From: Thermoplasmata archaeon | GTDB taxonomy: Archaea; Thermoplasmatota; Thermoplasmata; GCA-020350865 | NCBI GenBank assembly: GCA_020348445.1 | Contig: CP070751.1 | Coordinates: 484,594-548,593, forward strand | Direction of reading: 5' to 3' | Length of the DNA: 64,000 bases | In this document: piece after piece, positions 4,555 to 23,636 of the stretch | Position numbering within the stretch: position 1 is the first letter of the stretch | Layout of the letters: every line of letters begins with the position of its first letter | Translations under genes and position numbers: made by a program | The notes under the pieces: generated by a model | What the model was told of the DNA's origin: nothing | What the model saw: the letters and a program-made list of their open reading frames with translations, nothing else | The model's database searches: none

Positions 4555-4752
4555 TCCTCAAAAACCTAAAAATACTTCTAAGCCCATCCCCCTCCATTGG
4601 AGGGAATTCTCATGGCCGAATCGAACCTAGAAAGCCCAGTGTGTCCCCTGGAATACAGATACGGAAGAGACAGGATGAAGGCCATATTCACCGAGGCCAA
4701 CAAGCTTGCCAAGTTTTTGGAGGTTGAGGCGGCTTTGGCCGAGGCCCATGCT
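4555..4752 (+). repeat. Direct repeat copy 1 (198 bp): purB promoter, RBS and codons 1-47; partner at 23439-23636
   Basis: Manual alignment at offset 18,884 gives no gaps and 8 mismatches in 198 bp. Confidence 0.97.
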
Positions 4753-4764
4753 CACCATTGCTGA
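4612..4764 (+). pseudogene. purB: Truncated purB fragment (47 purB codons + HHC-stop)
   Basis: Translates MAESNLESPVCPLEYRYGRDRMKAIFTEANKLAKFLEVEAALAEAHA-HHC*. It matches the intact PurB N-terminus except for one R/K change. Confidence 0.93.
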
Positions 4765-4813
4765 TAATGACGACGGGCGTGAGATTTTTGTGGTGATTGT
4801 GGTTATAAGTTAG
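4751..4813 (+). pseudogene. 3'-terminal remnant of a PKD-protein gene paralogous/orthologous to the 1-4440 gene
   Basis: Reads LTIADNDDGREIFVVIVVIS* versus LTVTDDDGGVDVIVVIVIIG* at 4378-4440. Both read TAG-AGGA at the stop. Confidence 0.75.
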
Positions 4814-23283: not shown

Positions 23284-23438
23284 TCTTGTCATGATAAAAG
23301 ACGAAATACAAGGTATTAATACTAATCATGGAAATTTGATATATTACAGGATTTTACTTAATCTAACTTCTTTAAATCCATATTATTGTATTACCGCGAA
23401 TAATCCATCTCCACGAATGATGTCCATATTTCTTGTCA

Positions 23439-23636
23439 TCCTCAAAAACCTAAAAATACTTCTAAGCCCATCCCCCTCCAACGGAGGGAATTCTCATGGC
23501 CGAATCAAACCTAGAAAGCCCAGTGTGTCCCCTGGAATACAGATATGGAAAAGACAGGATGAAGGCCATCTTCACAGAGGCCAACAAGCTTGCCAAGTTT
23601 TTGGAGGTTGAGGCGGCTTTGGCCGAGGCCCACGCT
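23439..23636 (+). repeat. Direct repeat copy 2 (198 bp): promoter and 5' end of intact purB
   Basis: Matches 4555-4752 with 8 mismatches. Confidence 0.97.
23443..23492 (+). promoter_or_regulatory. Putative purB promoter (A-rich BRE-like stretch + TAAAAATA TATA-like box) and GGAGG RBS inside a CCCTCC/GGAGGG hairpin
   Basis: CAAAAACC-TAAAAATA lies ~40 bp upstream of the ATG. CCCTCC-AAC-GGAGGG ends 6 nt before the ATG. Confidence 0.5.

Follow-up and report, generated by a model that had tools for sequence, protein, structure and literature searches.

How a very large gene comes to lie directly beside an essential gene, with no integrase to account for its arrival, is the question raised by the purB locus of an uncultured Thermoplasmata archaeon. 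The window analysed here is the whole stretch of 64,000 nucleotides taken from the genome of this organism (G000; C1:484594-548593), and it harbours an 18,884-bp unit consisting essentially of one giant surface-protein gene and bracketed by two direct copies of the start of purB, the gene for adenylosuccinate lyase. We hold, with moderate confidence, that the locus is the scar of an integrase-independent recombination event between two related archaeal lineages, and the unit with its direct repeats of 198-202 nt is best read as the outcome expected of homology-facilitated illegitimate recombination (HFIR). Four observations carry this reading, namely the anatomy of the locus, the empty sites in relatives, the allele-like divergence of the two purB copies and the absence of recombinase genes.

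The duplicated start of purB and its single joint

The repeat was detected with a repeat finder as a two-copy direct repeat (4544-4752 and 23428-23636, 94%, spacing 18,884), then compared base by base, and its left copy was then searched by BLAST against the whole 5.16-Mb genome. The similarity is unbroken over 198 nt (4555-4752 vs 23439-23636), with eight mismatches (4597, 4598, 4623, 4662, 4667, 4686, 4692 and 4749) and a longest perfect run of 56 nt (4693-4748). In the genome the right copy was the sole match to the left one (202 nt, 95.5%, E = 1.3e-88), and the repeat is therefore far beyond chance. A search of the genome for purB returned the intact gene, one 5′ fragment of 48 codons and nothing else. 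The original prediction, which described a 198-bp repeat with eight mismatches that comprises the purB promoter, ribosome binding site (RBS) and 47 codons around a 6014-aa gene, was thus reproduced exactly by the base-by-base comparison, as was its statement that the upstream purB is truncated and the downstream one intact: the left copy reads codons 1-47, runs on through three foreign codons (HHC) and stops, and the right copy opens the full gene. The parts of the locus, in window positions, are as follows.

1..4440, + strand: PKD-A, a large PKD-repeat surface-protein gene of at least 1478 aa, which ends in TVTDDDGGVDVIVVIVIIG and a stop codon followed by AGG; the ancestral upstream neighbour of purB
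4441..4543, + strand: ig1, the native spacer between PKD-A and purB, 81% identical over 80 nt to the spacer of the related contigs L045/46/47
4555..4752, + strand: left repeat copy, with the purB promoter motif CTCAAAAACCTAAAAATAC, the RBS, the ATG at 4612 and codons 1-47; an orphan in ancestral context
4753..4813, + strand: X3, the last 20 codons and stop of another PKD-family gene (ending in LTIADNDDGREIFVVIVVIS), a 61-nt remnant in another reading frame
4814..5238, + strand: ig2, an AT-rich spacer of 425 nt (32.5% GC), with AAGGAG 8 nt before the ATG of the giant gene
5239..23283, + strand: the giant gene, an open reading frame (ORF) of 6014 aa with Pfam domains
23284..23427, + strand: ig3, a 144-nt spacer from the giant gene to the purB promoter
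23439..23636, + strand: right repeat copy, with the promoter, the RBS and codons 1-47 of the intact purB
23496..24857, + strand: purB, 453 aa, with Pfam Lyase_1 and ADSL_C; the sole intact copy in the genome

The relatives available for comparison were four other species of the genus (G001-G004) and metagenome contigs (L040, L045/L046/L047 and others), together with one Logan contig. When the regions upstream of purB were aligned for the four other species of the genus (loci L026, L024, L027 and L007), conservation began at the motif CTCAAAAACCTAAAAATAC (window 4551-4575), about 40-60 nt before the purB ATG, and everything further upstream differed. The motif is identical in G003 and G001, shows one or two changes in G002 and G004, and is probably the BRE/TATA (B recognition element and TATA box) promoter of purB. 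As the repeat begins on its left where promoter conservation begins, and similarity beyond that point ends as it does between any two purB contexts, the locus contains a single novel joint, at 4752/4753. A hairpin at the RBS, CCCUCC-NNN-GGAGGG (4590-4604 and 23474-23488), was considered and set aside: its z-scores were -0.25 and -0.10 against shuffled sequence, its conservation in G003 is not clear, and it is not used as evidence; the 6-bp hairpin loop holds two of the eight repeat mismatches.

The novel joint reads as an illegitimate junction (4750-4753) at which codon 47 of purB is joined to the tail of a PKD gene. From 4751 onwards another frame reads LTIADNDDGREIFVVIVVIS, a stop codon and then AGG, mirroring the end of PKD-A at 4440. 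X3 and the 3′ end of PKD-A are collinear through the stop codon and AGG, match in codon count between the DxDD motif and the stop and share 70-78% of their nucleotides, and a genome search found no other copy of X3, ig2 or ig3 in G000; the purB fragment is therefore fused to a different member of the PKD-A family. Only some 200 nt are duplicated, and the sequences that follow the left copy and precede the right copy are unrelated, which is not the pattern of a tandem segmental duplication. There is likewise no defined attachment (att) core, the repeat being a gene start of 198 nt that on its left reaches simply as far as the promoter is conserved.

The predicted lack of an integrase, transposase or tRNA was confirmed. 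The insert is one ORF with its spacers and X3, and the single 6014-aa ORF encodes adhesin-type Pfam domains alone, with no room for an integrase, transposase or other recombinase gene. No tRNA was found in window positions 1-40000, and the junction region had no Rfam match. The spacer ig2 showed no similarity to ig1 or to the regions upstream of two genes in G003 that are homologous to the N-terminus of the giant protein, and no conserved giant-gene promoter was found.

Empty sites in relatives and divergence of the purB copies

At least five related lineages have an empty site, in which a PKD gene lies directly upstream of purB. The proposed comparison of the PKD-gene/purB interval across relatives showed the insert to be absent from the ancestral arrangement in G003, G002, G004 and L045-47. 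In G003, G002, G004 and L045/L046/L047 a large + strand gene ends 104-170 nt before purB, and it is of the PKD-A type wherever the DNA was read: G003 has a 1303-aa PKD gene ending 104 nt before purB, and in G002 and G004 a PKD-A-type gene is next upstream. The closest agreement was found in L045/46/47, with a purB 85% identical to that of G000 and a PKD-A ortholog whose last 70 residues (ending in VVDDDGGVDVIVVIVIIS and a stop codon) are nearly the same as in G000; the tail DDDGGVDVIVVIVIIS of the L045 gene matches the left flank in G000. The distance from the PKD-A stop to the purB ATG is 171 nt in G000, measured to the orphan, and 168 nt in L045, and the Logan contig, judged from its called genes alone, has 168 nt between the end of a large + strand gene and purB. 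These empty sites place the orphan purB fragment in its ancestral setting and mark the 18.9-kb unit as derived.

The two sides of purB differ in their stability. Downstream of it, every relative examined has small ORFs, a gene of about 200 aa and then a gene of 2400-5500 aa on the opposite strand, which corresponds to the following block in the window.

25448..36156, - strand: conserved downstream block of a ~205-aa gene and a 3327-aa giant gene, syntenic in all close relatives

Upstream, other relatives have a Fic gene, a diphthine-synthase-like (dph5-like) gene, a beta-helix gene, a V4R gene or a Pyr_excise gene next to purB. In L040 the Fic gene is preceded by VWA/PKD and C25-peptidase/PKD genes and a diphthine-synthase-like gene, and in G001 a diphthine-synthase-like gene alone is found upstream of purB. 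Synteny thus breaks on the 5′ side of purB, where surface-protein genes are often located. The idea that the locus is a slot for exchanging giant surface proteins is upheld in so far as the upstream neighbour of purB varies among relatives; the exchange of cargo is not, as neither a second purB fragment nor any other cargo flanked by purB repeats was seen in the relatives' loci examined.

The divergence of the two purB copies bears on how the duplication arose. Their coding differences comprise five synonymous changes and one conservative replacement (Arg/Lys), with synonymous divergence (pS) of 0.166 and non-synonymous divergence (pN) of 0.009. The probability of at least five synonymous changes in six is 0.002 if both copies had drifted neutrally and about 0.02 if the orphan alone had drifted with the intact copy under selection. 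Because five of the six coding differences are synonymous, the sequences indicate that the copies are two alleles which diverged while both were functional, rather than a gene and its decayed duplicate. Among relatives this stretch of 202 nt has diverged at about 0.65 times the rate of the remaining purB sequence, and on this scale the 4.5% observed here would correspond to about 7% over the whole gene, which is near the species boundary. Both copies are equidistant from G003, G001, G002, G004 and L040-45, which favours neither direction of transfer.

These observations also weigh on the suggestion of a purely internal event, in which the 5′ end of purB would have been duplicated in place by replication slippage or template switching as the giant gene moved within the genome, the mismatches being acquired later. 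The native-like composition of the giant gene (see below) is in keeping with such an origin. Against it stand the synonymous changes (five of the six; P = 0.002 to 0.02), the presence of X3 with no parent in the genome and the lack of a second copy of any part of the insert, and we consider it very unlikely.

An assembly artefact would be a chimera of two co-existing strains, one with the empty site and one with the giant gene, in which case the purB fragment would not be real. The genome is a metagenome-style assembly (81.7% complete, 3.8% contamination), the purB copies differ as the alleles of two strains would, and giant repetitive genes do break the assemblies of relatives, as seen in the G003 homologs that lie at contig ends. 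Strain chimeras, however, arise at shared sequence, whereas here the path leaves purB at codon 47 and enters unrelated DNA with a few shared bases at most; moreover, G000 is a single 5.16-Mb contig, and five other loci in it have the same architecture with divergent repeats. Since the joint leads out of purB into unrelated sequence in a single-contig genome, an assembly chimera is very unlikely.

The giant protein itself has an N-terminal signal or anchor, PKD domains, TSP3-like calcium-binding repeats and a hydrophobic C-terminal region, and its Pfam matches include three Laminin_G_3 domains, many FG-GAP repeats and two pentraxin domains, with no enzyme domain among them. BLASTN of the whole insert against the genome gave no match outside the insert, and the giant gene has no paralog there. 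Its C-terminal 715 aa, compared with a set of 5.8 billion proteins, returned only itself and repeat-driven matches, and the C-terminal 527 aa found nothing in metagenome and genome contigs; the best matches of the C-terminus within the order have 29-36% identity. No giant gene was found in relatives, at the purB locus or away from it, save for distant homologs. The N-terminal 110 residues match two genes of G003 at 46-47% identity, the upstream contexts of which are unrelated.

L054 (G003:C88), 11727-12113: N-terminal-domain homolog, stopping at the contig end
L055 (G003:C144), 8368-8754: N-terminal-domain homolog, stopping at the contig end

As these homologs end with their contigs, the short-read assemblies of relatives are evidently broken by giant genes of this family, and little weight attaches to the absence of such genes from their draft genomes. 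The giant gene belongs to a lineage-specific family. A foreign composition was looked for and rejected: GC content, GC at third codon positions, codon usage and tetranucleotides are all within the range of the genome's giant genes, and among ORFs of at least 1500 aa the gene stands at the 52nd percentile for codon-usage distance and at the 94th for GC content, with no sign of a distant donor. The native-like composition and the N-terminal family held in common with G003 therefore fit a donor inside the same lineage group, and the source of the giant gene was probably a fairly close relative.

The genome is rich in genes of this size, with 132 ORFs of at least 1500 aa (the two longest 6345 and 6014 aa) that amount to about 312,000 codons, or some 18% of the 5.16 Mb. 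A complete genome of the same genus (Methanomassiliicoccales archaeon) measures 3.2 Mb vs the 5.16 Mb of G000, and giant surface-protein genes may account for much of this gap. The giant gene (~6800-7300) and PKD-A (~3800-4200) share a non-PKD module, running from DFKL[TR]IAGEKW through TF[TS]W[DE][FW]GDG, that is not named by Pfam. Among the five neighbouring genes scanned by Pfam (25448-41805) were a Ras-like GTPase, two CAP/CARDB proteins and two without a Pfam match; the Ras/Rab-like small GTPase gene (37878-38426) adjoins the two CAP (cysteine-rich secretory protein) and CARDB genes (38584-41805), and these are eukaryote-like families.

Candidate routes of entry

The homologous anchor required for HFIR is present in the locus: there are two copies of the purB promoter and 47 codons, 95.5% identical, and the right one leads on into an intact purB. 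As to the source of the DNA, its direction, its route of entry and the enzymes that acted on it (RadA and others), we infer a course of the following kind. Two lineages would have differed at the PKD-gene/purB interval, one with the ancestral PKD-A and purB and the other with a PKD-family gene, the giant gene and purB, and a piece of DNA from one would have been joined into the chromosome of the other. One side would have been settled by homologous exchange within or beyond purB (in the mirror version, upstream of PKD-A) and the other by an illegitimate joint that linked purB codon 47 with the foreign PKD gene, 20 codons short of its end. Since the segment that came in, or was retained, would have had a purB promoter and 47 codons of its own, purB would have stayed whole, and the older 5′ end would be left as an orphan.

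Two versions of this course can be envisaged. In the first, a linear donor consisting of X3, ig2, the giant gene, ig3 and the start of a second purB (purB′) would pair with the resident purB, and its far end would be joined at the resident codon 47. In the mirror version the resident would have possessed a PKD gene (PKD-X), the giant gene and purB, and incoming PKD-A, ig1 and a purB′ start would have replaced the resident PKD gene. The incoming DNA may hence have been the giant-gene side or the PKD-A side, both being equally compatible with the locus. This narrows the earlier proposal, in which the cassette entered by HFIR or Campbell-type integration with purB function preserved: one illegitimate joint, one homologous side and an intact purB all stand, whereas the giant gene can no longer be singled out as the incoming DNA, given that the mirror version is equally compatible. 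Later recombination between the repeats could delete the unit and restore a single purB, and a RadA-mediated loop-out is plausible in view of the 56-nt perfect run.

The same perfect run, with 95.5% overall identity, would also be an adequate substrate for a Campbell-type entry. A circle of X3, ig2, the giant gene, ig3 and the purB promoter with 47 codons, closed in the donor cell where codon 47 of purB had been illegitimately joined to the PKD tail, would integrate by a single crossover in the ~200-bp purB segment; a single crossover with a 5′-end fragment yields exactly the observed product of truncated copy, cargo and intact gene, and loop-out between the repeats would release the same circle. 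This route needs two steps, however, circle formation and then integration, and it requires the transfer of an 18.9-kb circle with no visible replication function, the insert having no other gene. The final structure is the same as in the linear-DNA model, so that the sequence gives no preference, and we regard a Campbell-type entry as unlikely.

A merodiploid intermediate followed by a deletion would lead to the same final sequence as well. In that case the addition of a large tract from a relative would first have produced tandem PKD-purB modules, one of them already with the giant gene. A later deletion, starting at codon 48 of purB in the first module and stopping 20 codons short of the end of the second PKD gene, would have removed the redundancy and given the joint at 4752/4753. 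Such a history accounts for the PKD-gene tail that follows the purB fragment and for the allele-like purB copies, and merodiploids arising from transformation are described for bacteria in PMC3784515. It takes at least two events, however, the deleted material has left no trace, and its end product is that of the explanation we prefer; we judge it quite unlikely.

Several points weigh against the scar of HFIR that we favour. The process is known, but it is seldom documented in archaea, and our literature search found no experimental demonstration of it in this domain. Illegitimate joints usually show microhomology of 3-10 nt. At the purB joint the bases that can be assigned to both partners are CT only (4751-4752), the parent sequence of X3 being absent from the genome. 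The synonymous bias is drawn from six sites, and the same pattern could arise if the 5′ end of the intact purB had since been replaced, through homologous exchange, by the allele of a relative. The tails of X3 and PKD-A diverge by 22-30% vs 4.5% between the purB copies, and the foreign PKD gene may thus be a paralog rather than an ortholog. In a search for a donor or sister strain the nearest purB was 87% identical at the protein level, with no same-species material in the collections searched; a 24-mer of the purB promoter found one short contig among metagenome contigs, and the arrangement of PKD-X, giant gene and purB was not seen in the collections searched.

Similar cassettes and comparison with known systems

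Is the purB locus singular within its genome? G000 alone was scanned for isolated two-copy direct repeats whose copies lie within 45 kb of each other and pair the end of a gene with an orphan. Besides purB, the scan returned five loci in which a cassette of 0.8-7.6 kb has an intact gene end on one side and an orphan version of that end on the other, at 82-92% identity. Their repeats lie at the following genome positions.

26661-26727 and 27709-27775
265257-265391 and 267590-267724
2633232-2633302 and 2635129-2635200
2677313-2677376 and 2685015-2685078
4986131-4986185 and 4986950-4987004

The gene ends that serve as anchors in these five cassettes, listed independently of the positions above, and their cargoes are as follows.

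3′ end of an archaeal prepilin peptidase gene: cargo a PMT-type glycosyltransferase gene, repeats 82%
5′ end of a polysaccharide-synthesis flippase gene: cargo an unknown 476-aa gene, repeats 83%
3′ end of a HerA-like ATPase gene: cargo of 7.6 kb including three SBBP beta-propeller genes, repeats 92%
3′ end of a DUF438/hemerythrin/PAS sensor gene: cargo a PIN-type toxin pair, repeats 91%
5′ coding end of a gene labelled Tsr3-like (no Pfam match): cargo a vapBC pair, repeats 89%

The six loci range from a vapBC pair to an 18-kb giant adhesin gene, and the purB locus is the largest and the least diverged of them. Gapless repeats made four of the smaller cassettes scorable (prepilin peptidase, HerA-like, PAS-sensor and tsr3-like), and these showed a synonymous excess; pooled with purB, they gave 24 synonymous and 16 non-synonymous differences, with about 21% synonymous expected. 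A look-alike at genome positions 3,963,655/3,975,114 was rejected, as the similarity there is that of the promoters and signal peptides of two intact paralogous beta-helix genes, with no orphan fragment.

Tentatively, this Thermoplasmata lineage may routinely gain genes by insertion that is anchored on gene ends and free of integrase, a generalization we hold to be possible but doubtful. DNA of relatives carrying a replacement copy of the first or last 20-50 codons of a resident gene would then recombine and leave an orphan end behind. If this were true, conserved gene ends would act as address labels for the exchange of flexible genes, and the flanking repeats would allow each insertion to be reversed. 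Together, purB and the five smaller loci suggest that this genome owes part of its flexibility to ordinary recombination with relatives and not to integrases. The purB locus offers a dated and readable example of giant-gene gain, in which the essential neighbour was kept intact by a substitute 5′ end, in an archaeal group that has no genetic system, and it predicts that empty-site and circle junctions are detectable in reads from the source community.

A comparable logic is found in the prophage e14 and phage 21, which insert in icd of Escherichia coli: a gene end borne by the element rebuilds the gene, and the displaced end remains as a diverged direct repeat whose differences are largely synonymous. 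Each of the two has an integrase gene of its own and relies on a defined att core, situated at the 3′ end of the gene. The purB locus resembles them in that the gene is rebuilt by a second copy of its end, the displaced end is kept at the far side and the differences are mostly synonymous, but it has no integrase, involves the 5′ end and has its far joint at a random point in the tail of another gene. The Campbell integration of a non-replicating circle with a 5′ gene fragment, as in a suicide vector, reversibly produces a truncated copy, the cargo and an intact gene. The topology of the purB locus is that of such a product; unlike suicide vectors, it has no vector-like or replicon function, and a natural circle is hypothetical.

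HFIR is established in Acinetobacter baylyi, Streptococcus pneumoniae and Pseudomonas stutzeri according to the work cited in PMC5361080, and it has been observed in E. coli conjugation (PMC3240628). As in these bacterial cases, the purB locus combines one homologous anchor with one probable illegitimate joint close to it, has presumably foreign DNA beside a conserved gene and includes no recombinase gene in the insert. It differs from them in being a natural scar in an uncultured archaeon, with an 18.9-kb insert that is essentially one giant gene, and in having its joint inside the anchor gene, whereby the 5′ end was duplicated instead of recipient DNA being lost. For the orphan arrays of type VI secretion system (T6SS) effector-immunity clusters in Vibrio cholerae and for Rhs and contact-dependent inhibition (CDI) loci, HFIR with no integrase has been proposed (PMC5361080). 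These arrays are alike in that a module is anchored on part of a conserved gene and the old end is displaced and kept as an orphan; they consist of variable 3′ ends of toxin genes with immunity genes, recurring serially at one locus, whereas the purB locus displays the 5′ end of a housekeeping gene, a single event and a surface-protein cargo. The kind of mechanism is thus known, and the interest of the case lies in how cleanly it is displayed in nature, by an uncultured archaeon whose load of giant genes is exceptionally large, and in the recurrence of the pattern at several loci of its genome.

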